Below are positions 11,151 through 42,185 of a DNA stretch of 64,000 nucleotides, piece by piece. Position numbers and translations under genes: made by a program. The first letter of the stretch is position 1; each line of letters begins with the position of its first letter. The DNA is taken from positions 438 through 64,437 of the forward strand of contig JASFZB010000007.1 in the NCBI GenBank assembly GCA_045046705.1. The letters run 5' to 3'. This DNA is from Rhodobacterales bacterium. Lineage in GTDB: Bacteria; Pseudomonadota; Alphaproteobacteria; Rhodobacterales; Rhodobacteraceae. Below the pieces are notes generated by a model that had not been told where the DNA came from, searched no databases, and was given only the letters and a program-made list of their open reading frames with translations.

Positions 11151-11210
11151 AGTCTGTGTACTCCTGTTTTCAGCCACCTTAGCCCGACTTATAAAATAGA
11201 AAAGCCCCCA

Positions 11211-12047
11211 ATGACAAAATATACCGATAGCCAGTCACTTTGCCTTGCGCCCAATGGCGGCCTGCCGCGCCTGCTAGAGATCATGGCCCGTCTGCGTGAT
11301 CCTGATACGGGTTGCCCCTGGGACATCGAACAAACTTTCAAATCCATTGCGCCCTACACAATCGAGGAAGCCTACGAAGTGGCGGATGCAATTGAACAGG
11401 GCGACATGAACGATCTGGAGGGCGAGTTGGGCGATCTGTTGTTGCAGGTGGTTTACTATACCCAGATGGGGCACGAGGCCGGACATTTTGATTTCGACAG
11501 CGTGACGAAAAAAATCGCCGACAAAATGATCCACCGTCATCCGCATGTTTTCGGGACTGAAAGTCGTGATAAATCCGCCGCACAACAAACCGCTGACTGG
11601 GAGAAAATAAAAGCGGCAGAGCGGGCGTCCAAAGGACAGGAAAAGGTCGGAACGCTGGATGGAATTGCATCGAATTTGCCCGCATTGACCCGCGCCGTTA
11701 AGTTGCAAAAACGTGCGGCAAGGGTCGGATTCGACTGGCCGTCAACTCTGGACGTACTAGACAAAATCAACGAAGAATGTGCAGAGTTGGTCGAAGCACA
11801 TGAAAAATTATCACATAACGAACAAGTTGAAGAATTCGGCGACCTGATGTTTGTAATGGCCAACCTGGCGCGACACCTGAATATTGATCCCGAAGAGGCC
11901 CTGCGTTCTGCCAACAAAAAATTCACCCGCCGCTTTGAAGCGGTGGAAGCAAAACTGGCAACCTTAGGCAAGACCCCACAGCAGTCGGATCTAACGGAAA
12001 TGGACGCGCTTTGGGATGCGGTCAAAGGGGATGAACGAAATACCTGA
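11211..12047 (+). CDS. mazG: Nucleoside triphosphate pyrophosphohydrolase MazG
   Basis: RLRDPDTGCPWDIEQT, EEAYEV, ELGDLLLQVV, RRHP-like HRHPHVFG, KRAARVGFDW and EEFGD motifs. True start is the ATG at 11211; the 682-aa track ORF is an antisense-extended artefact. Confidence 0.93.
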   Translation: MTKYTDSQSLCLAPNGGLPRLLEIMARLRDPDTGCPWDIEQTFKSIAPYTIEEAYEVADAIEQGDMNDLEGELGDLLLQVVYYTQMGHEAGHFDFDSVTKKIADKMIHRHPHVFGTESRDKSAAQQTADWEKIKAAERASKGQEKVGTLDGIASNLPALTRAVKLQKRAARVGFDWPSTLDVLDKINEECAELVEAHEKLSHNEQVEEFGDLMFVMANLARHLNIDPEEALRSANKKFTRRFEAVEAKLATLGKTPQQSDLTEMDALWDAVKGDERNT

Positions 12048-17132: not shown

Positions 17133-17329
17133 AACCCGCAGGGGGGGGGCGATTTCCACGCACCGTTGGCACGAATAATGCACATTTAAAAGTTTACTTG
17201 GTAAGATTAGAAGGTTAAAGATATTCTATCTACTTAAAGGTTATAGAGGTGGTGTAGCAACCCACCTTACCCTCTAGACGCGCCCCCCGCGCCCCGCTAA
17301 ACCCTTGGCCAAACCAAAGGGCCGAAGCC

Positions 17330-20596: not shown

Positions 20597-21403
20597 ATGA
20601 TGAATGAGCCAGAACCCTTTGCGGTAGATTTATCGAATAATGGCATTTTTCTATGGCACCGGAAACGTAGCAGAAAATGGGAGTTTTTGGGAAGTGTCCC
20701 GTTAAATTCCGGCAATTTACGCCAGCAACTTGAAACATTAAAACAAACGATACTTCGTATTGATGCAGCTTCAAATGCCGCCATCGTGCGCATACCCAGC
20801 GCCGAGGTGAAAACCTTTACACTTTCGCCTGACCCAGACGAAAACGCGCGTTGGGAAGTTCGGATTGTAGCGTCTCTGGAAGCGGCTGCGGGTATATCCA
20901 TCAGGGAATTGGCTTTTGATATAGATCGGGGCAATGCCACGCCCGATATTAGTGTTGCATGGACCCCGATGGCGGTTCTGCAGCAGGCCGAAGCCTTTGT
21001 TCATCTTATCGGGTTTATACCTACATATTACACAACCGACCTAAATCGTGCCGATTTCCCGAGAAATCCAAATTTTCAAATTACGGATTACCAATCGCCC
21101 CCCCAAAGCGCGAAAATCAGCCCTGAGGCCCCTATAACAGAAGCCATACAACAACCTATAGACATAAGCCAGCCGACAGCCGCTTACCCGGCGACAAACC
21201 GGCCTAAGGCTACTTTCGGGGGCCGATGGTTTATCACCCTGATCCTGCTTATCGCAATCTTAATCACTGCAATCTACTATTGGCCGCGCATGCAGGAGAC
21301 CGCAAATTCGGCACCTGTTACACAGGAAAACAGCTATATTTTGCCACTACATCAAAGCCCCCCCCGAATAGCTTTGAAAAAGCTAAAGCAATCTTATAGT
21401 TAG
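20597..21403 (+). CDS. Bitopic membrane protein; short paralog of the downstream gene
   Basis: N-terminal about 160 aa align by eye with the next ORF (FAVDLSNNGIFLWHR vs YAIELSNDGVSLWHR; IVRIPSAEV vs EVRIPRSEV; YYTTDLNRADFPR vs YYTTTLDKADFPR); one TM at WFITLILLIAILITAIYYW. Confidence 0.7.
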   Translation: MMNEPEPFAVDLSNNGIFLWHRKRSRKWEFLGSVPLNSGNLRQQLETLKQTILRIDAASNAAIVRIPSAEVKTFTLSPDPDENARWEVRIVASLEAAAGISIRELAFDIDRGNATPDISVAWTPMAVLQQAEAFVHLIGFIPTYYTTDLNRADFPRNPNFQITDYQSPPQSAKISPEAPITEAIQQPIDISQPTAAYPATNRPKATFGGRWFITLILLIAILITAIYYWPRMQETANSAPVTQENSYILPLHQSPPRIALKKLKQSYS

Positions 21404-21450: not shown

Positions 21451-23580
21451 ATGAACACATCTGATACGAAATATGCAATTGAACTATCCAATGACGGTGT
21501 ATCGTTGTGGCATCGCTTGGCAAGCGGGGGATGGGATTTATTGGGGAAGGTTGCACTTGGCGAACCTGATTTTTCTGAAAAAATTGCGGTGCTCAAGAAA
21601 AAATACATCCCAAAAGACGGCAGCAAATTGGTTGCCGAAGTGCGCATTCCACGCTCCGAGGTTTTCATCTCGAAGCTGAATCTTGAAGGCGCATCGGGCG
21701 ATGCCGCCACATCGAAAATCAACCGTTTCCTTGAAAAAAATACACCTTATAAAGCCAAAGATCTTGTCATAGACCAGATCACAAACATGGCGACTGACAA
21801 AACTTGTTTGGCGGCGATAACAAAACAAACTCTGAAGGAAGCCAGTGATTTTGTTTCCGGCTATGGGTTTCGTGCCGCTTACTACACCACAACGCTTGAT
21901 AAAGCCGATTTCCCCAGAGACCTGAAATTTTATGATGGCAAGCGTCCGGATATAGCCCCGCCCGGCGCACCTAAAGTGCCACCGCTTACAAACAAACCTG
22001 CACAGGAAATGCCATTAACTGCGCCAGTTAAACCCGACTTGAGTGGTTTTAAAACTGTGCGTAGCAAGTTACTGGTTACACCCGAGATACGCCCCGGCAA
22101 GACCAGCTCCCTACCTCCAAGGCCGCCCTCGCCAACCCCGCGCAGACGTATTTCAATCGATTTGCCGAAACAAAAAGAAACCACCACCCCGGCTTTAGCA
22201 ACGGCACCTGTAACGGCGCCGTTGAAAATGCCTCTGGGCGAAGCCAATACGGCCCATAAGGGCAGCTTCTTCAACCCGCGCATCCTTTTCCTGATTGCCG
22301 CCATCGTCGTTGCAGCTGTGTTGTATTGGTTTTATATTACCCTGTTTGATGGCAAAACGGAAATTTCGCAGCGGCAACAAATTTCCGATACGAAACCCGT
22401 TGCAGTGTCAGAGCCGCATGGATTGACCTATCAAATTGCACCGGATGCGGCCCCGTATGTGGACAGCACATCTAGTGGCGATACCACTCTAAATTCAAAC
22501 TCTGAATCAAAGATCGCCCTGCCCAAACCGGAACCGCTTGAAACAGCGCAAGACAGGACTGATATCAAGGTTGGAAGCATAGCCCGCCCCCCGAAACCAC
22601 CGGCACAAGTTATTGCACCCACGCCGGCTGCACCTAAAGCGACCCGGCAACCCGATGCACCCGAAACAGCCGCACAAGCGGTGACTGACGCGATTGCCGC
22701 CACAACCACAGCCGAACTAACCCCGACCAAAGAAGGCACCGCAGGGCCTGAAGGGATCAGATTATATCTAGGCCAACCCGATATTATGCCGCCGCGCCGA
22801 GAACAGTTGAAAGTGTCGACTGATCCGTTGAAAAACATCCCGCCTAAAATGCGCAGCGCGGAATTCGAAAACAATCATAAAGCCGAAGTACCGCTTGAAA
22901 CCACGCCAAATGCCGTTACCGAAACGGCGCCAACACCCCCGCCCGATGCGGATGTAACCACACCGGATGCCCCCGACCTATTGGCCTCGGCTGATCCTGC
23001 ATTGAAAACCATATTACCCAAACCACGCCCATCTGCCATTGCAAGGATTGCGCATGACGCGCAAAACTCTTTGCTTGCCAAAGCAGACCCCGCCCTTGCC
23101 AGTTCCAAGCCTAGGCGCAGACCCGCCAATTTGGCGGTTGCCAAGCCGCAAACCATCAACCCTTCCGAAATTGATAGAGCCATTCAACAGGCAAACAATG
23201 ACAACGTGCGCCCTCGCACCCGACCAAAAAATCTTCCATCCACGGCTGCAAAAGCCAACCGCAATGGCCGCCCTGTTCAGACCGCCGCATTATCCCCCGC
23301 CAGCGCACGCGGCACATCGGTTGCAAGCCCCGGGGCATCACCCGTAAACATCCAGAAAGAAGCAACAGAAAAGACCGGCTTAAAGAAAAGGCGTATATTG
23401 CTGATCGGGGTGTTTGGATCACCTGCAACACGGCGTGCCATGTTACGGATGCCAAGTGGCCGGTTTGTAACGGTAAAACCGGGGCAAAAAATAAGTGGCT
23501 GGAAAGTTGCCGCCATTGGTGAAAGCTCGGTTCGGATCACAAAAGGCAGTCGAAATCAGGTGTTGCGGATGCCCAAATAG
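21451..23580 (+). CDS. Rhodobacterales bitopic protein with Pro/Ala-rich linker and C-terminal PilP-like domain
   Basis: One TM (ILFLIAAIVVAAVLYWFY); C-terminus LLIGVFGSPATRRAMLRMPSGRFVTVKPGQKISGWKVAAIGESSV resembles the PilP/GspC-HR-like domain. Confidence 0.7.
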   Translation: MNTSDTKYAIELSNDGVSLWHRLASGGWDLLGKVALGEPDFSEKIAVLKKKYIPKDGSKLVAEVRIPRSEVFISKLNLEGASGDAATSKINRFLEKNTPYKAKDLVIDQITNMATDKTCLAAITKQTLKEASDFVSGYGFRAAYYTTTLDKADFPRDLKFYDGKRPDIAPPGAPKVPPLTNKPAQEMPLTAPVKPDLSGFKTVRSKLLVTPEIRPGKTSSLPPRPPSPTPRRRISIDLPKQKETTTPALATAPVTAPLKMPLGEANTAHKGSFFNPRILFLIAAIVVAAVLYWFYITLFDGKTEISQRQQISDTKPVAVSEPHGLTYQIAPDAAPYVDSTSSGDTTLNSNSESKIALPKPEPLETAQDRTDIKVGSIARPPKPPAQVIAPTPAAPKATRQPDAPETAAQAVTDAIAATTTAELTPTKEGTAGPEGIRLYLGQPDIMPPRREQLKVSTDPLKNIPPKMRSAEFENNHKAEVPLETTPNAVTETAPTPPPDADVTTPDAPDLLASADPALKTILPKPRPSAIARIAHDAQNSLLAKADPALASSKPRRRPANLAVAKPQTINPSEIDRAIQQANNDNVRPRTRPKNLPSTAAKANRNGRPVQTAALSPASARGTSVASPGASPVNIQKEATEKTGLKKRRILLIGVFGSPATRRAMLRMPSGRFVTVKPGQKISGWKVAAIGESSVRITKGSRNQVLRMPK

Positions 23581-23581
23581 C

Positions 23582-24964
23582 TTATAGCAACAGGATAGAG
23601 GCCAGCCCCAGGAATGCGAAAAACCCCACAATATCGGTGACTGTAGTCACAAACGCCCCGGATGCCAGCGCAGGATCAATCCCGATTTTATCCAGCCCCA
23701 ACGGCACCAATATGCCCGCAAGCCCGGCAACAACCAGATTGCCTACCATCGCCAACCCCAAAACCACCCCCAGCATCGGCAACGCGTACCAGTAGTACCC
23801 GATGATGCCGATAATAAAGGCAAATAGCAAACCGTTCAGCAGGCCGACAAACAATTCACGCCGGATAATCCGCCATGCGTTGGCGGGTGTCAGGTCTTTG
23901 GTGGCTAGCGCCCGCACAGCAACGGTCAGGGTTTGGGTTCCCGCATTGCCCCCCATCGAGGCCACAATCGGCATCAGCACCGCCAAGGCTACGATGGCTT
24001 TGATGGTTGCGGAAAACTGCGCAATGACAATAGACGCTCCGATCGCTGTCACAAGATTGACCGCCAACCACGGGAAACGTTGGCGGCTGGTTGACAGGAT
24101 GTTGTCGGTCAGGCTTTCGTCGCCGACACCGGCCAGACGCTTTATGTCCTCTTCCGCGTGTTCATCCAGCACTTCCATGGCATCGTCTATGGTAATGACA
24201 CCGACAAGACGGTTGTCCGCATCGACAACGGGGGCAGACACCATGTTATACTGGTTGAACGCATAGGCCACATCTTCCTGATCCTGTAATACAGGGATGG
24301 TACGAAACTCTTCATCCATAATATCGGTCAGTTTGGTATCACGCGCAGACGACATCAGGCTGGACAGGGGCACCTTGCCGACAGGCCGCAGCTTAGGGTC
24401 AACGATCATGACGTCATAAAACTGTTCCGGCAGGTCTTTATCAGAGCGCAGATCATCAATAACCTCGCCCACCGTCCAATGCTCCGGGGCCATGACCAAC
24501 TCGCGCTGCATCATGCGGCCGGCGGAATACTCCGGGTATTGCAAGGCATGTTCAACAGCCGCCCGGTCAGAGCTGTCCAATGCCCCCAAAACCCGTTCCT
24601 GTTGTGGCTCGTCCAGATCCTCGATCAGATCGACGACATCGTCGGTTTCCAGATCCTTGACCGCTTCGGTAACTGTCTCGTCGGACAGATCCTCGAACAC
24701 ATCGTCCAGCAGGCCTTCGTCCATTTCGGCTAGAACTTCGCCATCGAAATCCTTGCCCCAAAGCGCGATAAAGGCAGATCTTTCCTTGGGGCTGATCTGT
24801 TCATAAATGTCGGCAATGTCGGCGGCGTGAAACGGCGCAAGCAAGGTGACAAGCGCATCCCGGTCGCGGGCATCTACCGCATCCAGAACAGCATCGATTA
24901 AAGTGCCGTCGATTTCATAAGCGCGATCCGTATCTTCGGTATCATGAACATCTGTATCTGACAT
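23582..24964 (-). CDS. mgtE: Magnesium transporter MgtE
   Basis: Acidic N-domain, CBS pair (SAGRMMQRE, PVVDADNRLVGVITIDD), QRFPWL, MGGNAGTQ and DPALASGAFVTTVTD motifs. Confidence 0.95.
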   Translation of the reverse strand: MSDTDVHDTEDTDRAYEIDGTLIDAVLDAVDARDRDALVTLLAPFHAADIADIYEQISPKERSAFIALWGKDFDGEVLAEMDEGLLDDVFEDLSDETVTEAVKDLETDDVVDLIEDLDEPQQERVLGALDSSDRAAVEHALQYPEYSAGRMMQRELVMAPEHWTVGEVIDDLRSDKDLPEQFYDVMIVDPKLRPVGKVPLSSLMSSARDTKLTDIMDEEFRTIPVLQDQEDVAYAFNQYNMVSAPVVDADNRLVGVITIDDAMEVLDEHAEEDIKRLAGVGDESLTDNILSTSRQRFPWLAVNLVTAIGASIVIAQFSATIKAIVALAVLMPIVASMGGNAGTQTLTVAVRALATKDLTPANAWRIIRRELFVGLLNGLLFAFIIGIIGYYWYALPMLGVVLGLAMVGNLVVAGLAGILVPLGLDKIGIDPALASGAFVTTVTDIVGFFAFLGLASILLL

Positions 24965-25100
24965 ATCAACCTCCCCGCGCATTGCTTGCAGCCTTATAAC
25001 AGCTTGTCCCGCTTCAACAACGCAAATTGCGAAAATTCAAAAAGGTTTACGCACCCCGTGATGCAGCCTATCATCAAAGCATAGATAACAGGGCCACAAA

Positions 25101-30141: not shown

Positions 30142-31506
30142 TTAACGCTTTGATCTTTTGCGATAAATGGTGCTTGGGGCCAACCCAAGAACTTCGGCCG
30201 CTTTCGGGATTGATCCCCCTTGGGAAAAAATGGTCGCATCAATGAACTGGCGCTCTACCTCTTCAAGTTGCAACCCGACAAGTTGCTGGATGGCGTGATT
30301 TCTGCGTTCACCCCCCAATCTGCTTACTTGGGTGCCTAGGCTGGCAGCCCCGATTTCCTTATCTGCCAAGGAAAATCCCGTGGGCAGCATATCCAGTGCC
30401 ACCTTGCTGGCATCATAACTCGCCACAATCTTGTGCAACAAATTGGCAAGCTGGCTGATATTACCGGGCCAGTTATGCGACATAAACAGCTTCCCTACCT
30501 CTTTGGTAAGGCCGCTAAAGTTTTTTTGCTCGCCCCGTGAAAACCGGGCCAACAGGGCTTCTGCAATAAAAACAATATCACTGCCTAAATCGCTTAGCGC
30601 GGGCACATCCACTGTCAGGACATGAAGCAGGTAAAATAAATCTTCCCGAATTTTCCGGGTTTCCAGCAATTGATAGGGATCAATGCTGGTGGAACATATT
30701 ATTCTTGGAAATTGCGGGTCATTATAGTCATTCTGTTTGGCGTTCCGCAAAAGTATCGCCAATTTTGACTGCATCAGGGGGTCAAGTTTGGAAATTTCGC
30801 TAATATACAATGTCCCGCTATAGGCCTTTTGCAAGGCACCGGGTTCCGCTGTTTCTGGATGCAATCCACCATCTTCCAGCATACCTAAAAGGGTGTTTTG
30901 TTGTGCGGAAAATGTAAGTTGACTGCTACTATAAACGATAAATGGGTTTGATTTTAAACCAGAGAGATCATGGATAGCTTTGGCACAAACCTCTTTTCCA
31001 GACCCTTTTTCGCCAATCACAAAAACCGGTGCTGTCGAAGCCGCTACACGCGTAATTTTACGGTACATTTCCTGCATCAAGGGCCCGCGTCCGGTGAAGC
31101 CGTAAAAATTACCCTCAGCCATATCTATTTCAGGGTTATGTTCAAAGCGTGTCAAAGCGGATGACACTGTTGCCAGCAATCTTTCGTCCGAAAACGGCTT
31201 CAACAGAAAATCAAACGCCCCTGCGCGCATTGCTTCTACTGCGCGATTGACCGACCCATTTGATGTAATCACAATAATTTTGGCCTGTGGATTGTCATGG
31301 ACAAGCTTTTGGATCACCTCGATCCCGTCCATATCGGGTAAAAACAAATCCATAACTACAACCGAATGGCTGTTGGTATTAAACAACTTCAGCCCTTCAG
31401 CCCCGGATGATGCAATATCGACCGTATAGCCAGCGTTCATCAAATCGGCACTGTAAATCAACTGCAAGGTTGCCGTGTCTTCAATAAGCAACAAACGCTG
31501 CATCAT
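30142..31506 (-). CDS. LuxO/NtrC-like response regulator (REC-AAA+-Fis HTH) with degenerate AAA+ domain
   Basis: REC with phospho-Asp (VMDLFLPDMDG); Walker A GEKGSGKEVCA; WPGNISQL; HTH GSIPKAAEVLGLAPSTIYRK; no GAFTGA. Confidence 0.85.
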   Translation of the reverse strand: MMQRLLLIEDTATLQLIYSADLMNAGYTVDIASSGAEGLKLFNTNSHSVVVMDLFLPDMDGIEVIQKLVHDNPQAKIIVITSNGSVNRAVEAMRAGAFDFLLKPFSDERLLATVSSALTRFEHNPEIDMAEGNFYGFTGRGPLMQEMYRKITRVAASTAPVFVIGEKGSGKEVCAKAIHDLSGLKSNPFIVYSSSQLTFSAQQNTLLGMLEDGGLHPETAEPGALQKAYSGTLYISEISKLDPLMQSKLAILLRNAKQNDYNDPQFPRIICSTSIDPYQLLETRKIREDLFYLLHVLTVDVPALSDLGSDIVFIAEALLARFSRGEQKNFSGLTKEVGKLFMSHNWPGNISQLANLLHKIVASYDASKVALDMLPTGFSLADKEIGAASLGTQVSRLGGERRNHAIQQLVGLQLEEVERQFIDATIFSQGGSIPKAAEVLGLAPSTIYRKRSKR

Positions 31507-31862
31507 GGCAGGTTGCCGCGTGCAGATTGATCGGATTTCAAGAACCGCAGCAGACCGTCAAGCTGATTAATTGCCGCCAATACTGTGCCGTCGGGGAAAT
31601 CTGTGCTATAGAGCGGCTTGAATTCATTTATTTTCTTTGCCACCTTATGCAATTCCATAACCCCGACAACCCCGGCCAGAGAAATCAGTACATGGCTGGG
31701 TTCGTTTAACATATCCACGGCTTTGGCGGATTGTGCTGCCCGCAGGCCGCGCCGCACATTTTTAAGATCAATCATCAACTTCTCGATCAATATCAAAGAC
31801 TGTTTCGGCCCCAGCTTGTCCAAAAGCGTTAAGTAAGTCTGGTTTTGATAGTTATCGTTCAT
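31503..31862 (-). CDS. Stand-alone Hpt (histidine phosphotransfer) protein, LuxU-like
   Basis: 119 aa, helical; Hpt signature SHVLISLAGVVG; stop overlaps the regulator start by 4 bp. Confidence 0.7.
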   Translation of the reverse strand: MNDNYQNQTYLTLLDKLGPKQSLILIEKLMIDLKNVRRGLRAAQSAKAVDMLNEPSHVLISLAGVVGVMELHKVAKKINEFKPLYSTDFPDGTVLAAINQLDGLLRFLKSDQSARGNLP

Positions 31863-31917
31863 ACGCACACCATACACTTCCTGGCAGCCAAAACGGGCCG
31901 GCCAAGTTTTGTATAAT

Positions 31918-31952
31918 CCAAAATACCGGCTTTGCAAAATGCAAAACCGGTA
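31918..31952 (-). terminator. Probable intrinsic terminator after prpE
   Basis: Minus strand reads TACCGGTTTTGCA-TTT-TGCAAAGCCGGTA followed by TTTT. Confidence 0.6.
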
Positions 31953-31974: not shown

Positions 31975-33867
31975 CTATTTCTGTGGATAGCCCAGTGTTT
32001 TAAGGGCCTCTGTAATTTCATCCAGAATGGCAGGATCATCAATGGTTGCAGGCATTTTCCAAGGCTCGGCATCGGCAATTTTTGCCATTGTACCGCGCAA
32101 AATTTTGCCCGAACGGGTTTTTGGCAAACGGTCCACAACACAGGCCATCTTGAACGCCGCCACAGGGCCGATGGTTTGGCGCACCAAAGCCACGCATTCT
32201 GCAACCACCTCTGTATGCAGTTTTTCACAGCCCGCATTCAAGCACAAAAACCCCATCGGCAATTGTCCCTTCAGCGCGTCCTTGACACCCAGAACCGCAC
32301 ATTCGGCAACATCGGGGTGATTGGACAGGGTCTCTTCCATTTGCCCGGTAGACAGACGGTGTCCCGCCACATTGATCACATCATCGGTGCGCGACATAAT
32401 ATAAAGATAGCCATCTTCATCTTTGTAACCGGCGTCCCCGGTTTCATAATAGCCAGGGAACGTTTCAAGATAAGAGGATTTATAACGACCGTCTGCATGC
32501 CAAAGGGTTGGCAGGGTGCCGGGGGGAAGTGGCAATTTGATCGCGATGGCCCCCAGTTCGTTCGGCCCCAATTCGGTTCCGTCATCGGACAGGATTTGCA
32601 CATCATAGCCGGGCAGCGGCACGGTGGGCGAGCCAAGCTTTACCGGCATTTTCTCTATTCCCATCGGGTTCGAGACAATGGCATAGCCGGTTTCGGTTTG
32701 CCACCAGTGGTCGATTACCGGCACGCCCAGTTGTTTTTCCGCCCATTGGATGGTGTCGGGGTCGGCGCGCTCGCCGGCCAGAAACAGTGTTTTCAGACAC
32801 GACAGATCATATTTCTTGACAAACGCGCCATCGGGGTCAACGCGCTTGATCGCCCGAAACGCGGTCGGTGCGGTAAACAGAACCTTGACATTATGCTCAG
32901 AGATAACCCGCCAGAAAGTACCCGCATCGGGCGTGCCAATAGGCTTGCCTTCAAACACCACCGTGGTGTTGCCGTGGATCAGCGGGCCGTAGCAGATATA
33001 AGAGTGCCCCACGACCCAACCAACATCGGACGCCGCCCAATAGACATCGCCGGGATCCACATCGTAGACATTTTTCATCGTCCAGTTCAACGCCACGATA
33101 TGACCGCCGGTGGGACGGATAACACCCTTTGGCTGACCTGTGGTGCCCGAGGTATAAAGGATATAGACAGGATCGGCCCCGCCCATTGGCACACAAGGTG
33201 CCGGGTTTGCACCTATTTGAAAAGCATCCCAGTCAATATCACGACCCTCTATTAGATCAGCTGCCAGTTCTTCACGTTGCAAAATAACGCAAAATTCCGG
33301 CTTATGGCTGGCCATATCTATCGCCCCGTCCAAAAGCGGTTTGTAGGGGATTACCCTGCCCGGCTCTATCCCGCACGAGGCTGCAATAATCGCTTTCGGG
33401 GTGGCATCATCAATCCGAGTTGCCAACTCGTTGGCCGCGAAACCGCCAAACACAACCGAGTGGATCGCCCCGATACGCGAACAGGCCAGCATCGCAACAA
33501 GAGCTTCGGGAACCATCGGCATATAGATCAAAACCCGGTCGCCCTTGGCCACACCTTTGGCCTGCAAAGCCCCTGCGAAAGTCGCGACCTTGGTTTGCAA
33601 TTCGGCAAAGCTGATCTTGGCCGATTTACCGGTGATCGGGCTGTCGTAAATAATCGCGATCTGGTCCCCGCGTCCCGCTTCCACATGGCGGTCGACCGCG
33701 TTATAGCAGGTGTTGATCTCGCCATCCTTGAACCACTCGTAAAGCGGTGCGTTTTCGTCAAACAGGGCTTTTGAAGGTGGCTTTGACCATGAAACCGCTT
33801 TGGCCGCTTCCATCCAAAATGCTTCAGGGTCTGATTTCCAGCCTTCGTAAACTTCCTTGTAAGACAT
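31975..33867 (-). CDS. prpE: Propionyl-CoA synthetase
   Basis: Starts MSYKEVY; NTCYNAVDRHV, YILYTSGTTGQPKG, DHWWQTETG, RTDDVINVAGHRLS and LPKTRSGKILR motifs. Confidence 0.92.
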   Translation of the reverse strand: MSYKEVYEGWKSDPEAFWMEAAKAVSWSKPPSKALFDENAPLYEWFKDGEINTCYNAVDRHVEAGRGDQIAIIYDSPITGKSAKISFAELQTKVATFAGALQAKGVAKGDRVLIYMPMVPEALVAMLACSRIGAIHSVVFGGFAANELATRIDDATPKAIIAASCGIEPGRVIPYKPLLDGAIDMASHKPEFCVILQREELAADLIEGRDIDWDAFQIGANPAPCVPMGGADPVYILYTSGTTGQPKGVIRPTGGHIVALNWTMKNVYDVDPGDVYWAASDVGWVVGHSYICYGPLIHGNTTVVFEGKPIGTPDAGTFWRVISEHNVKVLFTAPTAFRAIKRVDPDGAFVKKYDLSCLKTLFLAGERADPDTIQWAEKQLGVPVIDHWWQTETGYAIVSNPMGIEKMPVKLGSPTVPLPGYDVQILSDDGTELGPNELGAIAIKLPLPPGTLPTLWHADGRYKSSYLETFPGYYETGDAGYKDEDGYLYIMSRTDDVINVAGHRLSTGQMEETLSNHPDVAECAVLGVKDALKGQLPMGFLCLNAGCEKLHTEVVAECVALVRQTIGPVAAFKMACVVDRLPKTRSGKILRGTMAKIADAEPWKMPATIDDPAILDEITEALKTLGYPQK

Positions 33868-33871: not shown

Positions 33872-36004
33872 TTATTCTCCCGATTTTGTATGCTTGACCA
33901 ATTCCAGAACTTCTTTTGCCGCTGCCGGTATGTTTGTGCCGGGCCCGAATATTGCCCGCACCCCGACTTGCCGCAAGAAGTTGTAATCATTGGGCGGGAT
34001 CACCCCGCCGCAAATCACGATAATATTGCCGCCGCCCTTGTTTTTCAGAGCATGCACCAGTTGCGGGGCCAGCGTGGTGTGGCCTGCCGCCTGTGACGAG
34101 ATACCAACAACATCGACACCTTTTTCGATGGCATCTATTGCCGCCTCTTCAGGGGTTTGAAACAGCGGCCCCATCTCAATATCAAAGCCAATGTCGGCAA
34201 ACGCCGTGGCAATGACCTTGCCGCCACGATCATGGCCGTCCTGCCCCATCTTGACCACCATCATCGACGGCTTTTTTCCGTATTTAACAGCAAAATCCGC
34301 AACTTCCGCCTGAATATCCAGAAACCCTTGATCGCCTGCGTATGCGGCACCATAGACCCCTGACAAAAGCTTTACCTTGGCCTTATGCCGGCCGAAGGCG
34401 CGTTCCATCGCGTCCGAGATTTCACCCACGGTGGCCCGCGCACGGGCGGAATCCACCGCCAACTCCAGCAGGTTGCCATTACCGCGTGCACCCGCTTCCA
34501 GCGCGCCCAATGTCGCATCGCAAACCGCCGTATCACGGGTTTTTCTAATCTCTTTCAACCGTTTGATTTGCGCATCGCGCACAGCGGTATTGTCGATCTC
34601 GCGCACATCAATTTCGGCATCATCATCAGTTTGAAACTTGTTCACACCAACGATAATATCTTCACCACGGTCCACCCGCGCCTGTTTTCTCGCCGCCGCT
34701 TCCTCAATGGCCAGCTTCGGCATGCCGTCTTCAACGGCTTTGGTCATACCGCCCATAGCATCGACCTGCCCGATCAATTCCCACGCTTTATCGGCCAGTT
34801 CTTTGGTCAGGCTTTCAACATAATACGACCCTGCCAGCGGATCGACCACATTGGTCACGCCGGTTTCATTTTGCAAGATCAGTTGGGTATTTCGCGCCAA
34901 ACGCGCCGCCGCATCGGATGGCAAGGCTATGGCTTCATCATAGCTGTTGGTGTGCAACGACTGGGTGCCGCCCAACACCGCTGACATGGCCTCGTATGCG
35001 GTGCGAATGGCGTTGTTATAGGGGTCTTGTTCCTGCAAAGACACGCCGCTGGTCTGGCAATGGGTACGCAGCATCAAGGACTTTTCCTGCTTCGCGCCAA
35101 ACTCGGTCATGATCCGGTGCCACAACAACCGTGCCGCGCGTAATTTGGCCGCTTCCATAAAAAAGTTCATACCGATGGCGAAAAAGAACGACAGGCGCGG
35201 CGCAAACGCATCCACATCCATGCCGCGTGCCATAGCCGCGCGCACATATTCCTTACCATCCGCCAGCGTGAACGCCAGTTCCTGCACCAAGGTCGCGCCG
35301 GCTTCTTGCATATGATAGCCGCTGATCGAAATCGAGTTGAACTTGGGCATCTCGCGGCGGGTATAATCAATAATGTCCGAGACAATCCGCATTGAGGGTT
35401 CTGGCGGGTAGATATAAGTGTTGCGCACCATGAATTCCTTCAGCACATCGTTTTGAATGGTGCCCGACAGTTTGGCGCGGTCTACGCCCTGCTCTTCACC
35501 GGCCACGATAAAGCTGGCCAGCACCGGAATGACCGCGCCGTTCATCGTCATCGAAACGCTGACTTTATCCAAGGGAATGCCGTCAAACAGGATCTTCATG
35601 TCCTCGACACTGTCAATCGCTACACCGGCCTTGCCGACATCGCCCACAACCCGCTCATGGTCGCTGTCATAGCCGCGATGGGTGGCCAGGTCGAAAGCTA
35701 CGGAAACCCCCTGCTGCCCGCCTGCCAGCCCCTTGCGGTAAAACGCATTGCTTTCTTCCGCCGTTGAAAAGCCCGCATATTGCCGGATCGTCCAAGGGCG
35801 GCCCGCATACATCGTGGCCTTTGGCCCGCGCAGGAACGGGGCCGAACCGGGGGTGGAATTCAATGTATCCAGCCCTTGCAAATCATCCGCCGTATAAAGC
35901 GGCTTTACCGCAATGCCTTCCGGCGTATGCCAAGTCAAATCTTCCAAAGCCCGACCGCGCAGTTCTTTTTCCGCCAGCTTTTCCCAGTCCCGCCGCTTGC
36001 CCAT
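33872..36004 (-). CDS. scpA: Methylmalonyl-CoA mutase (B12-dependent)
   Basis: [42 protein letters not shown] and B12 motif [10 protein letters not shown]. Confidence 0.97.
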
Positions 36005-38004
36005 TATTCAAACTCCATGATAATTTCGTCAACGGCCAGATTGTCACCCACACCGGCGTTGATTTTCGTCACCAGACCATGCTTTTCCGCCCGCAGCACA
36101 TTCTCCATCTTCATCGCCTCGACCGTGCATAAGGTCTGGCCTTCCTGCACTTCGTCGCCCACGGCCACGCTTAGATCTACGATCAGCCCCGGCATCGGGC
36201 AAAGCAGCAGTTTGGACGTGTCAGGGGCTTGTTTTTCAAGCATATATTCAGCTAATTCAGCGCGGCGCGGGGTGTGGATGATAACGTCCGCCGCAGCCCC
36301 CCGATAGCGGATATGATAGCCCGAGCTAACGACAGCCACTTTCAACACCAACGGCACATCATCTATCATGAAGGTCGCCAGTTGTTGCCCCGGCACCCAA
36401 TCACTGGTTACACGATGTTTTGTGCCATCCTTGAAAGTGACGGTAGAGCCGTCGGGGTCTGCATCAATTTTCACGTCAAAACGCGCGTTTTGTACGGTCA
36501 AAACCCAATCCGTGCCAACTTTACGTTCATGATTGTCAAGCCGCCCCGACACCCGCGAGCGGCGAATTTCAGCGACGCGGTACATCGCGGCGCAGGCTGT
36601 TGCAATACGTTGTAACGTGGTTTCATCCAAATCAACCCCGTTAAAACCTTGGGGATATTCCTCTTCAATAAACGCCGTTGTGATCTCGCCGCTCACAAAG
36701 CGCGGGTGATCCATTACCGCCGATAAAAACGGCAGATTGTGACCGATGCCTTCAACCTCGAACCCGTCCAAAGCATTGCGCATCACTTCAATGGATTTTG
36801 CCCGATCAGGCGCCCAGGAACACAGCTTGGCAATCATCGGATCATAAAACATCGAGATCTCGCCACCCTCATAAACGCCGGTGTCATTGCGCACGGCCAT
36901 CACATCGTTGGCAACTTCCACGGGTGGACGGTAGCGCGACAAACGGCCAATCGAGGGCAGAAAATTGCGGTACGGATCTTCGGCATAAAGCCGGCTTTCC
37001 ATCGCCCAGCCGTTGATGCCGATGTCCGATTGCACAAACGGCAACTTTTCACCTGCGGCGACGCGGATCATCTGTTCAACCAGATCAATACCGGTGATCA
37101 GCTCGGTCACGGGGTGTTCGACTTGCAGACGCGTATTCATTTCCAGAAAATAGAAATTTCGCTCACCGTCAACGATAAATTCCACCGTCCCCGCCGAGCA
37201 ATAATCCACCGCTTGCGCCAGGGCACAGGACTGTTCGCCCATGGCTTTGCGCGTGGCTGCATCCAGAAACGGGCTTGGGGCTTCTTCGATAACTTTTTGA
37301 TTGCGCCGCTGGATCGAGCATTCGCGTTCATTAAGATAAACACAGTTTCCATGCTTGTCCCCCAACACCTGAATTTCGATATGGCGCGGTTGGGTGATGA
37401 ATTTCTCGATAAAAATACGGTCATCGCCAAAACTGCTGGCGGCTTCATTCTTTGACAGTTGAAAGCCCTCGCGGGCTTCCGCGTCATTCCATGCCACCCG
37501 CATGCCCTTGCCGCCTCCACCAGCAGAGGCCTTGATCATCACCGGATAACCGATCTGGTTCGATATTTTGACCGCCTCGTCCGCGTCTGCAATCTCGCCC
37601 ATAAAGCCCGGAACTATGGTTACTCCGGCTTCGGCTGCCAGTTTTTTCGATGTGATTTTATCCCCCATCGCTTCAATCGCCCCCGCTGGCGGGCCGATGA
37701 AAGCGACGCCCGCTTTTTCCAAAGCCTGCGCAAACAGTTTATTTTCCGACAAAAACCCATATCCGGGATGCACCGCTTCGGCCCCTGTTTGACGCACAGC
37801 ATCCATCACTTTATCCAGAACGATATAACTTTGTGCCGCAGGCGACGGACCGATATGCACCGCTTCATCGGCCATTTTGACATGCAACGCCTCTTTGTCC
37901 GCATCCGAATAAACCGCAACTGTTTTGATCCCCATCTTCTGGGCCGATTTGATCACACGACAGGCAATTTCGCCGCGATTGGCAATAAGAATTTTCTTAA
38001 ACAT
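36004..38004 (-). CDS. pccA: Propionyl-CoA carboxylase alpha subunit (biotin carboxylase plus biotin carrier)
   Basis: [33 protein letters not shown] and biotin site EAMKME; TAA overlaps the scpA ATG. Confidence 0.96.
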
Positions 38005-38058
38005 ATAAAACACCGTTGTTTGTTATCGGGGTAGATTGGGATTGGGCAGATTTATACC

Positions 38059-38195
38059 AAAAAAAAGGGGCCCTGTCGTAAAAACGAAAGGGCCCCAGTA
38101 GAGGGGAAATGAAAGAGTTTAACCGCATGGAAATGCGGAAAACCTCTTGATCGGGTTTTGCTTTCACCAGCACCGCACCCGACCAGTACGTCATT
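38059..38195 (-). ncRNA. Candidate structured RNA (three hairpins plus U8 tail) upstream of pccA
   Basis: Minus-strand stems GGTCGGGT/ACCCGATC, CCGCAT-TTCC-ATGCGG and GGGGCCCT/AGGGCCCC followed by T8. Confidence 0.55.
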
Positions 38196-38328
38196 GAAGT
38201 TCCAAAAGAGCTTCCTTGAGATTTATGGTAAACCGGTTTTATCGTGCTGCATATGGTGGTGTTCTTTTGCGCCTTGTTTTGGGCAAAAAGCCGCCAAACT
38301 TGGGTTATGTTGCGCGAATACATGCCGA

Positions 38329-38676
38329 TCAGTCCTTAAACACGTCTGGAAAGCTGACCATAGCCCGGCCTACATTGATCTTAAGTAGAGCCGCGTAATC
38401 TTGCGGATCAAAAGAATCGTCGGCAGGCTCAACCTCGCGGCCAAACAGCCAGCTTAAACGCCCCGCATCAAGATTGCCGCGTTCAAAGGGTTGATCCCCG
38501 AAACAATCCCAAAGTGCCTGCATAAAGCCCGCATCGGCAAGGCGGTCGGCAAACCTGCGGTCAGCATAGCGTTCTCGGGCAACCAGTTTGGTTGCGCCTG
38601 CCTTATTGGCACGCCGAATTGTAAACTGAAAATCAGAGCTGGGAAGTCGGGACGGAAACCCGCGATGTTTTAACAT
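38329..38676 (-). CDS. Conserved hypothetical protein of Rhodobacterales pcc clusters
   Basis: 115 aa; RGFPSRLP..FQFTIRRAN and PFERGNLDAGRLSWLFGREV recalled as conserved between pccB and pccA. Confidence 0.7.
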   Translation of the reverse strand: MLKHRGFPSRLPSSDFQFTIRRANKAGATKLVARERYADRRFADRLADAGFMQALWDCFGDQPFERGNLDAGRLSWLFGREVEPADDSFDPQDYAALLKINVGRAMVSFPDVFKD

Positions 38677-38711
38677 GGGCGCCCCCCGAAATTATCTAAC
38701 GGGGCGCAGCC

Positions 38712-38738
38712 CAATACCCCTAAGGGGTATTGTTTTTT
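38712..38738. terminator. Hairpin CAATACCCC-TAA-GGGGTATTG with T6 on the + strand
   Basis: Perfect 9-bp stem directly 3' of the small lipoprotein stop. The U-tract is on the opposite strand, so it may be an mRNA-stabilising stem or an antisense terminator. Confidence 0.5.
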
Positions 38739-38889
38739 AAGATGCTGGCAGTTTTTGTGAAGTGGGTTCTGCCACGATCGGTGTTGGCTCAGGTGCTGCT
38801 GCAGGGCCAGCGGATGAGGATGAATTTGCACATGCAGACAGGCCAAGAGCCGTTGCGAAAAGTGCTGCAATTGTGATTGTTTTAGACAT
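38737..38889 (-). CDS. 50-aa lipoprotein (not in ORF track)
   Basis: AGGAG RBS; MSKTITIAALFATALGLSA-CANSSSSAGPAAAPEPTPIVAEPTSQKLPAS. Confidence 0.8.
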   Translation of the reverse strand: MSKTITIAALFATALGLSACANSSSSAGPAAAPEPTPIVAEPTSQKLPAS

Positions 38890-39099
38890 AGAAAACTCCT
38901 AATTTCAGTGCGATCCAATTCAATTTTTATTTGGAACGTCTTTAGGTTAGCAGTATTTGTTTTGAAAAAATAGAACCTTGATGGGAATCGACAAAAAAAT
39001 CGAAATATTGTGCGTTCCAATGCCCCCCCGACGTTAACAAACCTTGTGGCACCCGCTTGTTTTGAAGGTGATTTATTATTTAGTATCATTGCTATATCC

Positions 39100-40632
39100 C
39101 TACAAAGGCAAATTATCATGCTTGCGCCATGGGTTTTCGATTTTTTTCGATTTAAGACTGGCAAACGCCCGCGAAACCCGCATTCGGGTATTTTGCGGCA
39201 TAATAACCTCGTCAATAAAACCGTTTTCCGCCGCAACAAATGGATTTGCAAAACGGGTTTCGTAATCCACAGTCAGGGCGGCGATTTTCTGCGCGTCCCC
39301 TAGATCGGAACGGTGCAGAATTTCAACCGCACCCTTGGCCCCCATTACGGCAATTTCGGCTGTGGGCCAGGCATAATTCACATCGCCCCCCAAATGTTTC
39401 GGCGACATCACACAATAAGCCCCGCCATAGGCTTTGCGCGTTATTACCGTCACGCGCGGCACCGTGGCTTCGCCAAAAGCGTAAAGCAGTTTGGCCCCGT
39501 GTTTGATCACGCCGCCATATTCCTGCGCCGTTCCCGGCAAAAAGCCCGGCACATCTACCAGGGTCAGCAACGGAATTTCAAACGCATCGCAGAACCGCAC
39601 GAAGCGCGCCGCCTTGCGCGATGAATTTATGTCCAGACAGCCTGCCAGCACCATCGGTTGATTGGCCACGACACCCACAGTCGAGCCTTCAAGGCGAATA
39701 AATCCGGTCAGGATATTTTTGGCAAAATCCGGTTGGATCTCACAAAAATCGCCCTCGTCCGCCAGTTTTTGCACCAGCTCTTTCATGTCATAGGGCGTAT
39801 TGGCATTTTCGGGAACGATAGTATCCAAAGACGGCTCTTTGCGCGCCGGATCGTCGAAAAACGGCCGCACAGGCGGTTTTGATTTGTTGTTCAGGGGCAG
39901 GAAGTCAAACAGGCGGCGCACTTCCATCAGCGCGTCCATATCGTTGTCAAAGGCGCAATCCGCCACCGATGATTTGCTTGTGTGGGTTTTCGCCCCGCCC
40001 AGTTCTTCCGCTGTCACAACCTCGTTGGTCACGGTTTTCACCACATCGGGGCCGGTTAGAAACATATAAGAGCTGTCGCGCACCATAAAGATGAAGTCCG
40101 TCAAGGCAGGCGAATAAACCGCCCCCCCCGCACTTGGTCCCATAATCACACTGATTTGCGGGATCACGCCCGAGGCCTTGATATTGTTTTGAAACACCGA
40201 TGTGTAGCCCGCCAACGAGGCCACGCCCTCTTGTATGCGTGCGCCGCCTGAATCGTTCAACCCGATGATCGGAACGCCATTGCGCATGGCCATTTCCTGA
40301 ACCTTGCAGATTTTCTTGGCGTGGGTGACGGACAGTGATCCGCCGTAAACCGTGAAATCCTGACTAAAGACATAAACCATGCGGCCATTGATCGTACCCC
40401 AGCCGGTAACAACGCCGTCGCCGGGGATATGTTCCTTGTCCATGCCGAAATCCTGGCATTTGTGGGTCACGAACATATCGAATTCTTCGAAAGAACCTTC
40501 ATCCAGCAACACTTCGATGCGTTCACGCGCCGTTAGTTTACCTTTGGCGTGCTGCACGTCAATGCGCCGCGCACCGCCGCCAAGTTTAGCCCCAGCCCTG
40601 CGGTTTTCCAATTGTTGGATTATGTTAGGCAC
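39100..40632 (-). CDS. pccB: Propionyl-CoA carboxylase beta subunit
   Basis: GTG start after GGAGG; [33 protein letters not shown] and RKAYGGAY motifs; 510 aa. Confidence 0.96.
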
Positions 40633-40703
40633 GCGAATTCCTCCCAAAACTTTTCTTGCTATTCTACATGAACGCGCGGGGCTTGAAAGGCAATATTAGT
40701 TAA

Positions 40704-40759
40704 TTTGCAAAACTATAATATTTTCGCTATTGCTATTTGCAAAGTTGCAAAGTTGCAAA
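40704..40759. promoter_or_regulatory. PccR-type operator: TTTGCAAA plus tandem TTTGCAAA-GTTGCAAA-GTTGCAAA
   Basis: Boxes at 40704, 40736, 40744 and 40752 between divergent pccB and pccR; TTTGCAAA is the known ScfR/PccR half-site. Confidence 0.85.
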
Positions 40760-40772
40760 GATTGGACTCGTT

Positions 40773-42185
40773 ATGGCAAACAACAAACTTTATGCAGGGG
40801 TCGCCTTGCGCGAAATTCGCTATGAATTCCGGTTGACCCAAAAACAGTTTGCCGAAAGGCTGAACATTTCCCTACCCTACCTAAGCCAGATGGAAAACAA
40901 TCACCGCCCCATCGCCGCATCCGTGGTTCTGGCACTGGCGCGGGATTTCCATTTCGATGTCTCGAAACTTGCGGGCGGCGACACCCCGCGAATTATAGCC
41001 GATATGAAAGAGGCCCTGGCCGACCCCGCCTTCAAGGATGCCCAGGTCAGTTTGGCGGATTTGCAACTGACCGCCTCAAACGCCCCTACGCTGGCACGGG
41101 CGTTTCTGGATCTGCATCGCACCTACCGTCAGGCACAGGAACGGCTTGCCTCACTAGACGAAGCTTTGGGGCGTGAGGGCGGTTCGGTAACAGTTTCACC
41201 TTGGGAAGAGGTGCGGGATTTCTTTCATTATTGCGATAATTACATTGATGCCATTGACCGATCTGCGGAAAGTTTTTCACATAAATTAGCACAAAGCGGA
41301 CAATCCATACATAATGCCTTGATCCAGTGGCTATCGCACAAACATCACCTGACAGTGCAGTTTGATACAAGCGCCAGCCTGCGGAATTTGGATCATGGTC
41401 GCCGAATTCTTGCTCTGTCAAAAACCGCCAGCAGCCAATCTCAAGCTTTTCAAATGGCGCATCAGGTCGCCCTCTTGGCGCATAATGATTTGATCGAGGC
41501 CAGCTTGGACATGGCGCGTTTCAGCACGCTTGAAGCCCGCGATATATGCAAGATTGGGCTTGCCAATTACTTTGCGGGGGCCACGCTTTTACCCTATGCC
41601 GAGTTTCTGCAAGCCGCACAGGAATGCCGCCATGATCTGGAAATTCTGGCCCTGCGCTTCGGGGCCTCGCTGGAACAGGTCGCACACCGCTTGTCGACCC
41701 TGCAACGCGCCGGGCTTAAGGGAATACCGTTCTTTTTCGTCCGCGTTGATCAGGCCGGCACCATCACCAAACGCCATTCGGCCACCAAGCTGCAATTCGC
41801 CCGTTACGGCGGGGCTTGCCCGTTATGGAACGTACACCGCGCCTTTGAAACCCCGGGGCGGTTCTTGCGGCAACTAGCCGAAACCCCGGACGGGGCGCGG
41901 TACTTCTGTCTGGCCCGTGATGTTTCAAAACCCGCAGGGGCCTTTCACGCGCCCATCAGGCGATATGCCATCGGTCTGGGCTGCGAGGTCAAACATGCAG
42001 GCGCGTTGGTCTATGCCGACGATATGGGCATCAAGAACGCCCAAGCCTTTGAACCCATCGGAATTTCGTGCCGGATTTGCGAGCGTGACAACTGTCACCA
42101 AAGATCAATCCCGCCCTTGGAGCGCCGCCTGAAGGTTGATCACAACGCACGCGGTGTGTTGCCCTATTCGCTTTCGGAAAAGTAA
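40773..42185 (+). CDS. pccR: ScfR-family (XRE-IrrE-ScfR) regulator of propionyl-CoA assimilation
   Basis: XRE HTH (SLPYLSQMENNHRP), SPWEEVRDFFH, GLANYFAGA, ITKRHSAT and CPLWNVH motifs, C-terminal GISCRICERDNCHQRS; divergent from pccB. Confidence 0.9.
   Translation: MANNKLYAGVALREIRYEFRLTQKQFAERLNISLPYLSQMENNHRPIAASVVLALARDFHFDVSKLAGGDTPRIIADMKEALADPAFKDAQVSLADLQLTASNAPTLARAFLDLHRTYRQAQERLASLDEALGREGGSVTVSPWEEVRDFFHYCDNYIDAIDRSAESFSHKLAQSGQSIHNALIQWLSHKHHLTVQFDTSASLRNLDHGRRILALSKTASSQSQAFQMAHQVALLAHNDLIEASLDMARFSTLEARDICKIGLANYFAGATLLPYAEFLQAAQECRHDLEILALRFGASLEQVAHRLSTLQRAGLKGIPFFFVRVDQAGTITKRHSATKLQFARYGGACPLWNVHRAFETPGRFLRQLAETPDGARYFCLARDVSKPAGAFHAPIRRYAIGLGCEVKHAGALVYADDMGIKNAQAFEPIGISCRICERDNCHQRSIPPLERRLKVDHNARGVLPYSLSEK

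Follow-up and report, generated by a model that had tools for sequence, protein, structure and literature searches.

We analyzed a stretch of 64,000 nucleotides from a Rhodobacterales bacterium (contig JASFZB010000007.1), hereafter called the window, in which two overlapping genes lie directly behind a set of propionate assimilation genes. The first codes for a stand-alone Hpt protein, and the second codes for a response regulator that resembles LuxO of Vibrio. On balance, we lean toward the view that this pair is the reduced descendant of a phosphorelay, tied to the propionate--CoA ligase gene prpE, that consisted of a tripartite kinase and a LuxO-like bacterial enhancer-binding protein (bEBP). 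If so, the regulator would now act as a DNA binder that is controlled by phosphorylation, operates independently of sigma-54, and regulates at least its own expression. The genes on which this interpretation rests are the following:

30142-31506, minus strand: LuxO-like response regulator gene, 454 amino acids, with REC, degenerate AAA+, lid and Fis-type HTH domains.
31503-31862, minus strand: stand-alone Hpt gene (hpt), 119 amino acids, with the His57 codon at 31692-31694.
31975-33867, minus strand: gene for a prpE-like propionate--CoA ligase (NCBIfam PRK10524, 731 bits).

The origin of the pair is apparent from related loci. Actibacterium, Rhodovulum and Tropicimonas carry, in this order, prpE, a gene for a protein of 510-529 amino acids with HATPase_c and Response_reg domains, and the regulator gene. 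Kinase and regulator genes overlap there by 4 nt, just as the stop codon of hpt and the start of the regulator gene share 4 nt (ATGA) in the window. These kinases are devoid of a membrane or sensor region, and their H-box is located only about 25 residues from the start. Like ArcB, with which they align from DHp to Hpt, they are tripartite, and the Hpt domains of ArcB and of BarA match the 119-amino-acid protein structurally; unlike these kinases, the window retains the Hpt domain alone, as a separate gene. The small protein aligns to the last ~110 residues of the prpE-linked kinases, including the sequence HVLISLAG(A/V)VG (BLASTP E = 1e-6). Furthermore, a hidden Markov model (HMM) derived from the stand-alone Hpt family only matched the kinase open reading frames (ORFs) of related loci L002-L004 with E = 1e-7 to 7e-9. 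A search of 1.84 billion representative proteins with the Hpt profile returned 254 matches; among the best 150, 36 proteins of 420-575 amino acids were hit at their extreme C-terminus.

A prpE ortholog resides directly upstream and on the same strand in each of the 28 Rhodobacteraceae loci examined, and likewise in the window. Between prpE and the regulator gene, relatives encode a histidine kinase (HK) of the arrangement HK-REC-Hpt, and in the window only the Hpt part of this gene is present. The stand-alone protein is homologous to the C-terminal domain of the kinase and is derived from it. The simplest history suggested by these alignments would be that a deletion of the part coding for DHp, CA and REC left the Hpt domain as a gene of its own. 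Additional stand-alone Hpt proteins of this family exist, one of which is encoded with a 4-nt overlap to a LuxO-like REC protein.

The assignment of the small protein as an Hpt domain, which had been proposed from the sequence alone, agrees well with its predicted structure. An AlphaFold2 (AF2) model (predicted local distance difference test, or pLDDT, score of 92.4) depicts a helical bundle with His57 on the helix formed by residues 49-66. Its top Foldseek matches are all Hpt domains, namely Shewanella 3myf (template modeling score 0.74-0.76), HptB, ArcB, BarA and YPD1. Pfam recognizes no domain in the protein; the generic Hpt model misses it, and only two of 23 relatives match that model at E < 1. 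The sole NCBIfam match is Vibrio LuxU (NF041948), with a score of 18.1 bits and E = 0.0026, which lies below the cut-off of 140 bits. Similarly, 19 of the 23 relatives match the LuxU model and no other NCBIfam model, with a best E value of 2.2e-5. Of 26 database homologs, 24 share His57 and its flanking residues EPSHVLISLAG without change. An alternative GTG start codon for hpt is located at 31868, two codons upstream. The hpt frame of locus L009 (4640-5004) is broken by a frameshift, which reflects either real erosion or an assembly error.

The regulator matches the Pfam models Response_reg, Sigma54_activat, AAA_lid_14 and HTH_8, and three of its parts are central to our argument:

31165-31491, minus strand: REC domain (Pfam Response_reg), residues 6-114, with the codon of the phospho-acceptor Asp53 at 31348-31350.
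30595-31092, minus strand: AAA+ core, residues 139-304, matching Sigma54_activat with 89.8 bits only.
30148-30267, minus strand: Fis-type HTH (Pfam HTH_8), residues 414-453, with the LuxO-type recognition helix APSTIYRK.

When the regulator was compared with 18,950 NCBIfam models, 116 families matched and the best was Vibrio LuxO (NF041946) at 313 bits, followed by NtrX at 215 bits and NtrC at 207 bits. The NtrC, NtrX and FlbD profiles all score more than 95 bits under the LuxO profile. Even so, the regulator falls below the equivalog cut-offs both for LuxO (800 bits) and for NtrX (NF051870, 600 bits). Among protein sequences in the PDB, LuxO (5ep0) is again the best match, with 243 bits versus 187 bits for NtrC1. 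The recognition helix LGLAPSTIYRK aligns with L(D/E)VSPSTIYRK of named Vibrio and Photobacterium LuxO proteins, and the corresponding helices of E. coli NtrC, ZraR, AtoC and GlrR are unrelated. An AF2 model of the regulator (mean pLDDT 77) has all four domains folded and keeps the AAA+ fold. Foldseek searches with this model do not discriminate among bEBPs: NtrX, LuxO and NtrC1 are all matched at ~1e-28, and the top structural matches include NtrX and VpsR.

In likening the pair to LuxU and LuxO, the sequence-only reading had quoted several short strings, and each of these is indeed present: LLLIEDTATLQLIY, GKEVCAKAIH, WPGNISQL and GSIPKAAEVLGLAPSTIYRK in addition to SHVLIS, which includes His57, and MDLFLPD, which includes Asp53. 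Judged by sequence comparison, the resemblance is real and reaches to the operator described below. It holds for the best-scoring named profiles, for 5ep0, for the recognition helix and for the operator; it breaks down at the equivalog cut-offs, which are missed, and at the sigma-54 mechanism. We also concur that the system is undescribed, in that no paper characterizing this alphaproteobacterial family emerged from our literature searches, which addressed LuxO in Alphaproteobacteria or Rhodobacteraceae and sigma-54 in connection with prpE.

The sequence-only reading had overlooked three features: the degenerate AAA+ domain, the LuxO-type operator at 31932-31944, and the tripartite kinase that occupies the hpt slot in sister lineages. 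The first of these bears on the mode of action. Walker A of the regulator (GEKGSGKE, 30991-31014) is intact. In place of GAFTGA, the loop is now MLEDGGLHPETAEP (30841-30882); Ser236 (30799-30801) substitutes for the Walker B Asp, and Leu293 (30628-30630) for the arginine finger. Alignment with LuxO places EDGGLHPE opposite KGAFTGA, LYISEI opposite LFLDEL (Asp to Ser) and FYLLH opposite YYRLH (Arg to Leu). In the AF2 model, residues 212-216 are disordered (pLDDT < 50).

These changes extend throughout a group of close homologs, comprising 30 full-length proteins with 57-81% identity from metagenome-assembled genomes (MAGs) and isolates of Amylibacter and Neptunicoccus, all of which lack GAFTGA. 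A broader Rhodobacteraceae group at ~40% identity (Actibacterium, Rhodovulum, Tropicimonas, Falsirhodobacter, Amaricoccus) keeps GESGTGKE, G(S/A)FTGA, LFLDEI and the arginine finger, and its members reach 526-540 bits with the LuxO model. The Walker B position is Asp in 88 of 88 proteins of the broad group, versus Ser in 13, Asn in 12, Arg in three, Pro in one and Asp in one protein of the close group. Likewise, the arginine finger is Arg in 88 of 88 proteins versus Gln in 28 and Leu in two. Across the former L1 loop, the columns have an entropy of 2.04 bits among the close homologs, compared with 0.38 bits in the broad group. REC and HTH follow the opposite trend, being more conserved in the close group than in the broad group, and the residues D10, D53, T81 and K103 and the Walker A Lys are each invariant in all 30 close homologs. 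This pattern of residue loss makes it very probable that sigma-54 activation and ATP hydrolysis have been lost in the regulator clade. Databases label these proteins ‘sigma-54-dependent Fis family transcriptional regulator’, very probably in error, which is a caution for annotators.

The pair has not simply been left to drift. Compared with locus L006, a relative whose regulator is 81% identical, the ratio of nonsynonymous to synonymous substitution rates (dN/dS) is 0.125 for the regulator (0.13 for its AAA+ part and 0.036 for its HTH), 0.13 for Hpt and 0.056 for prpE. In addition, 12 species-level lineages have kept the reading frames intact. Both hpt and the regulator gene are under purifying selection, and therefore we conclude that they are functional.

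Phylogenetic placement was examined with a neighbor-joining tree (442 columns, 100 bootstraps). It comprised named LuxO proteins, both Rhodobacteraceae clades (canonical and degenerate), further alphaproteobacterial proteins carrying this HTH, and NtrC, AtoC, ZraR and GlrR of E. coli, whereas alphaproteobacterial NtrC, NtrX, FlbD and TacA were left out. The clade that includes the window's regulator has 100% bootstrap support and a long branch. It groups with the canonical clade and a Thioclava group at 79% bootstrap, a value that may be influenced by long-branch effects, and all proteins with the PSTIYRK helix are split from the E. coli outgroups at 63%. Within the range of this tree, the clade is nested inside a Rhodobacteraceae LuxO-like group.

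Decay of this system appears to be a recurring event. Thioclava has the kinase along with a regulator that carries GAFPGA and LLLDN. Neither kinase nor Hpt is present in Pseudothioclava, in Paenirhodobacter or with the second Tropicimonas copy. Independent decay is evident in L019, L022 (Thioclava), L030 (Pseudothioclava), L038, L043 (Tropicimonas), L040 and L041, where the loop reads GAFPGA or KDAFAGA, the Walker B DE has become DN, or the L1 loop is deleted. The kinase gene is truncated in L020 and absent in other decayed prpE-linked loci. Sister lineages therefore document a stepwise erosion of a tripartite kinase/bEBP pair, with examples of the full system, of Hpt only, and of the regulator only. 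The complete systems (Actibacterium, Rhodovulum, Tropicimonas, Thioclava and others) share with the window the slot behind prpE, the 4-nt overlap, a homologous Hpt, the same HTH and ~40% regulator identity; they differ from it in their complete kinase and intact motor motifs.

A further line of evidence is a conserved DNA element upstream of hpt. The 112-nt gap between prpE and hpt carries TTTGCATTTTGCAAA (31931-31945), whose core is TTGCA-N3-TGCAA, and the following features can be assigned around it:

31932-31944, no strand: LuxO-type operator TTGCA-N3-TGCAA, exact, with the extended form TTTGCAWWWTGCAAA at 31931-31945, located 70 nt upstream of the hpt start.
31910-31937, minus strand: putative sigma-70-type promoter of hpt and the regulator gene, with the predicted -35 element TTGCAA (31932-31937), a 16-nt spacer and the predicted -10 element TATACA (31910-31915).
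31924-31952, minus strand: predicted hairpin extending the operator, followed by UUUU (31920-31923), with a calculated stability of -21.9 to -26.4 kcal/mol and z = -4.7.

The LuxO binding consensus is TTGCA-N3-TGCAA (Lenz 2004, as quoted in PMC3352281), and the 13-mer in the window equals the sites mapped by chromatin immunoprecipitation sequencing at qrr1/luxO and qrr3 in V. cholerae. The exact dyad occurs only once in the 64 kb, where 0.31 matches are expected. Among 12 species-level relatives, it is found 60-85 nt upstream of hpt in 11 of 11 loci whose contig reaches that far, and it is the single exact match in each ~11-kb locus. The operator is conserved while the intergenic sequence around it has diverged among these relatives (57-81% protein identity).

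Oceanicaulis and the gammaproteobacterium Oceaniserpentilla also carry this dyad in tandem, with copies 21 nt apart, upstream of kinase-regulator operons that have this HTH, and neither has pcc context at these sites. The positions are as follows:

L029: tandem dyads at 2144-2198.
L031 and L039: tandem dyads at 2124-2178.
L032: dyads at 805-817, 4909-4942 and 9018-9050.

Because the same dyad and HTH occur together in Oceanicaulis and Oceaniserpentilla, helix and dyad are a pair not only in Vibrio. The association of the LuxO head with its operator is in this way extended well beyond the Vibrionaceae. GAFTGA is intact in the regulators of these operons, which look like unexplored LuxO-like regulons outside the Vibrionaceae.

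In the window, the predicted -35 element TTGCAA is the right arm of the operator. A TATAAT-like hexamer (TAT(A/G)NT-like) follows exactly 16 nt past this arm in eight of 12 loci. A protein on the dyad would cover the -35 element, and therefore we infer autorepression. Both the promoter and the hairpin were recognized by reading and folding the sequence; a scan with sigma-70 and terminator consensus models flagged neither.

Taken together, these observations are consistent with the following scheme. An ancestral Rhodobacteraceae relay would have combined a sensor-less DHp-CA-REC-Hpt kinase with a LuxO-like sigma-54 activator. Deletion of the part coding for kinase and REC would have followed in the Amylibacter/Neptunicoccus lineage, where the C-terminal Hpt would persist in translational coupling to the regulator. 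The regulator has retained its phospho-acceptor pocket, the AAA+ fold and the DNA-reading helix, but its loop for sigma-54 contact and its ATP-hydrolysis residues are gone. Phosphate would pass from a donor encoded elsewhere to His57 of Hpt and on to Asp53 of the regulator. The obvious candidate for this donor is an unlinked hybrid kinase, which is plausible by analogy. The regulator would bind TTGCA-N3-TGCAA without acting on sigma-54, and its expected effect at the dyad over its own -35 element would be repression, in the manner of LuxO at luxO. The comparisons above establish the homology and derivation of the pair, its motif loss, the purifying selection and the conserved operator; binding of the regulator to this operator, the sign of regulation, the phosphate route and any tie to propionate metabolism beyond gene order are predictions.

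Comparison with known systems helps to define what is unusual about this arrangement. As with LuxU and LuxO of Vibrio, a stand-alone Hpt protein (~115 amino acids) is encoded beside a REC-AAA+-HTH regulator that has the identical helix PSTIYRK and the identical operator at the regulator's own promoter, where binding in the window is predicted. Unlike the Vibrio pair, the proteins of the window score far below the cut-offs (313 vs 800 and 18 vs 140 bits) and have lost the Walker B Asp, GAFTGA and the arginine finger. The genes are ordered hpt then regulator, whereas in Vibrio luxO precedes luxU. The context is propionate assimilation rather than quorum sensing, no Qrr gene was found in the window, and the Hpt protein stems from a fused kinase domain.

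Other bEBPs without GAFTGA, namely Rhodobacter capsulatus NtrC, Caulobacter NtrC, NtrX and Vibrio VpsR, are reported to act at sigma-70 promoters, in some cases dependent on Asp phosphorylation. The regulator of the window shares with these proteins a REC-AAA+-HTH architecture from which the sigma-54 contact loop has been lost. It differs from them in lineage, HTH and operator, in the additional absence of the Walker B Asp and arginine finger, and in having an Hpt protein rather than a classical kinase as its partner. In the Caulobacter ShkA-ShpA-TacA relay, a hybrid kinase feeds a stand-alone Hpt protein and then a bEBP, and TacA keeps GAFTGA and activates sigma-54 genes. This relay resembles the pair as an alphaproteobacterial combination of a stand-alone Hpt and a bEBP, but the window's regulator is without GAFTGA. 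The genes for ShkA, ShpA and TacA are unlinked. The pair in the window offers a natural LuxO-family case with phospho-acceptor and DNA-binding functions but no sigma-54 motor, which is helpful in telling the repressor role of LuxO from its activator role.

Several observations weigh against the reduced-relay interpretation. First, loci of the canonical clade have no LuxO dyad near the operon. Second, in the window, though not in its relatives, the dyad forms the core of a strong terminator-like hairpin. Third, the dyad contains a TTTGCAAA box, and therefore its binder could be PccR, judging from the sequence. Fourth, the phosphorylated His is replaced in two MAG lineages, each represented by a single contig: by Gln in L011 (59-394, PSQVLISLAG) and by Asn in L014 (4630-5004, PSNVLISLAD). 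These replacements may mean that phosphotransfer is not essential everywhere, or they may be assembly errors. Finally, our search for RNA-seq runs holding the locus matched only DNA runs or runs of unknown type, and so expression of the pair receives no support from this source.

The second and third of these points lead to the alternative that survives best, although we regard it as unlikely. Here the dyad would be a box for PccR, a regulator of the ScfR type, or a terminator, such that hpt and the regulator gene would be under propionyl-CoA control and the targets of the regulator would lie elsewhere. ScfR regulators recognize TTTGCAAA-type boxes, according to a paper that cites the original work. 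The window encodes a PccR-type ScfR (40774-42185), ~9 kb from the dyad. The divergent intergenic region between pccB and pccR (40700-40765) carries TTTGCAAA at 40704 and the array TTTGCAAAG-TTGCAAAG-TTGCAAAG at 40736-40760 with an 8-nt period; three TTGCAAAG repeats occur in this region. These repeats are probably PccR/ScfR operator boxes. (For pccR, an ATG start at 40774 is likelier than the listed TTG at 40737.) In addition, one perfect TTTGCAAA lies within 10 of 11 dyads, the pcc-mcm-prpE gene string has the dyad at its 3' end, and the hairpin in the window (-22 kcal/mol) is followed by a U tract.

However, the invariant part of the element is an inverted repeat with a 3-nt spacer rather than the 8-mer, and L009 lacks a perfect box. 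The period of the PccR boxes is 8 nt, but the dyad has its half-sites 7 nt apart. Lineages lacking pcc context also combine this dyad with this HTH, and the dyad equals experimentally mapped LuxO sites. Moreover, the equivalent region of 11 relatives yields only a weak hairpin (-4 to -11 kcal/mol) that no U tract follows, and for this reason termination is not the conserved role of the dyad. The hairpin may nonetheless serve as a prpE terminator in this genome only, which would make hpt and the regulator gene depend on their own promoter.

A second alternative, which we consider improbable, is that the pair functions independently of phosphorylation. Hpt would then be a stoichiometric partner of REC, acting as a co-regulator or anti-activator, and the regulator would bind DNA constitutively. 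The cognate kinase and its REC domain have been lost, His is replaced in L011 and L014, and the 4-nt overlap suggests co-production at a fixed ratio. Autorepression by LuxO is also not known to depend on its phosphorylation state. The near invariance of His57 with its EPSHVLISLAG surroundings and the complete invariance of D10, D53, T81 and K103 are nevertheless hard to explain without phosphoryl chemistry, and both His exceptions are single MAG contigs.

Still less credible is the proposal of the sequence-only reading, in which the pair is a fully LuxO-like, multi-input hub: several orphan hybrid kinases would feed Hpt, and the phosphorylated regulator would activate sigma-54 promoters such as those of small RNA (sRNA) genes. 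This proposal draws on LuxU and LuxO being the best named matches, on the presence of the LuxO operator, and on an Hpt protein that stands alone. The accompanying claim that no kinase lies nearby is correct, since no further HATPase_c or REC protein was found in the 64 kb, either by Pfam among the 48 largest ORFs or by phmmer among ORFs of at least 70 amino acids with a related hybrid kinase as the query. However, the whole clade is without the loop for sigma-54 contact and the ATP-hydrolysis residues, and for this reason a LuxO-like mode of working, that is, sigma-54 activation of sRNA genes, is very improbable for this regulator. A sigma-54 promoter scan of the 64 kb gave 51 matches versus 49 expected and hence no excess, and an Rfam scan of the window found three tRNAs only, with no Qrr or other sRNA. 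Nothing in the data points to a hub; the comparative evidence instead depicts a self-contained, prpE-linked kinase/regulator pair with a single dedicated kinase at this position in sister lineages, whose kinase and REC part appear to have been deleted here. The regions upstream of prpE and the kinase gene in L002-L004 likewise contain no convincing sigma-54 promoter. The best intergenic sigma-54-like match in the window is TGGCACGAATAATGCA (17167-17182, one mismatch), between enolase and thiE-like genes, and is probably due to chance.

That the pair is a decaying relic without function, en route to becoming a pseudogene, might be suspected from the lost catalytic motifs, the long branch, the repeated kinase loss in related lineages and the low GC content at third codon positions (GC3, 0.495 vs 0.593 in prpE), but it is scarcely believable given the intact frames, the low dN/dS values, REC and HTH conservation above that of the canonical clade, and the conserved operator.

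A broader proposal can be offered, if only as a speculation that we think rather doubtful. LuxO-type regulators with this helix and operator might constitute an old family with a wide distribution in Alphaproteobacteria, which in Rhodobacteraceae is wired to the activation of short-chain acyl-CoA (prpE) instead of quorum sensing. The lineage of the window would then have a ‘repressor-only’ LuxO that works without sigma-54. Given that the operator overlaps TTTGCAAA boxes, LuxO-type and ScfR/PccR proteins could compete or cooperate on propionate genes. Whatever its precise function, this is an unstudied two-component system that is invariably tied to prpE in marine Rhodobacteraceae, a group that is important in marine carbon turnover and in the turnover of dimethylsulfoniopropionate (DMSP) and propionate.

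The hpt-regulator pair is located directly behind pccB-pccA-mcm-prpE, and the remaining genes of this string are the following:

33872-36004, minus strand: methylmalonyl-CoA mutase gene (mcm).
36004-38013, minus strand: pccA.
39100-40647, minus strand: pccB.

The description of an hpt gene that overlaps a REC-AAA+-HTH gene behind a propionate operon, and that is AT-richer than this operon, agrees with the coordinates, the Pfam matches and the base composition. GC content is 0.470 for the regulator gene versus 0.541 for prpE, and GC3 for mcm is 0.644. Across the degenerate clade (the window, L006, L013 and L017), GC3 of the regulator gene is 10-17 points lower than that of the adjacent prpE, and no such drop is seen in the canonical loci L002 and L003. 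Weak expression or relaxed selection on codons would account for this difference better than recent transfer. Horizontal transfer as the source of the low GC content can be ruled out, since relatives with conserved synteny exhibit the GC3 drop as well.

Several additional features of the region are worth recording. The 1.1-kb spacer between pccB and pccA (38013-39100) includes small ORFs only, of 115 amino acids (38329-38676) and of 50 amino acids with a lipoprotein-like sequence (38737-38889). In Amylibacter SFDW26, a DinB-like (IMS) gene is inserted between pccA and mcm. Two adjacent ORFs without a Pfam match, 20597-21403 (268 amino acids) and 21451-23580 (709 amino acids), lie beside mgtE (23582-24982), and a large ORF without a Pfam match likewise adjoins mgtE in the Amylibacter loci L001 and L005. 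Finally, the listed ORF at 9999-12047 (682 amino acids) has MazG and PRA-PH domains that are confined to its C-terminal third; the true gene probably covers far less than this, and the long reading frame from the TTG start is likely artefactual.

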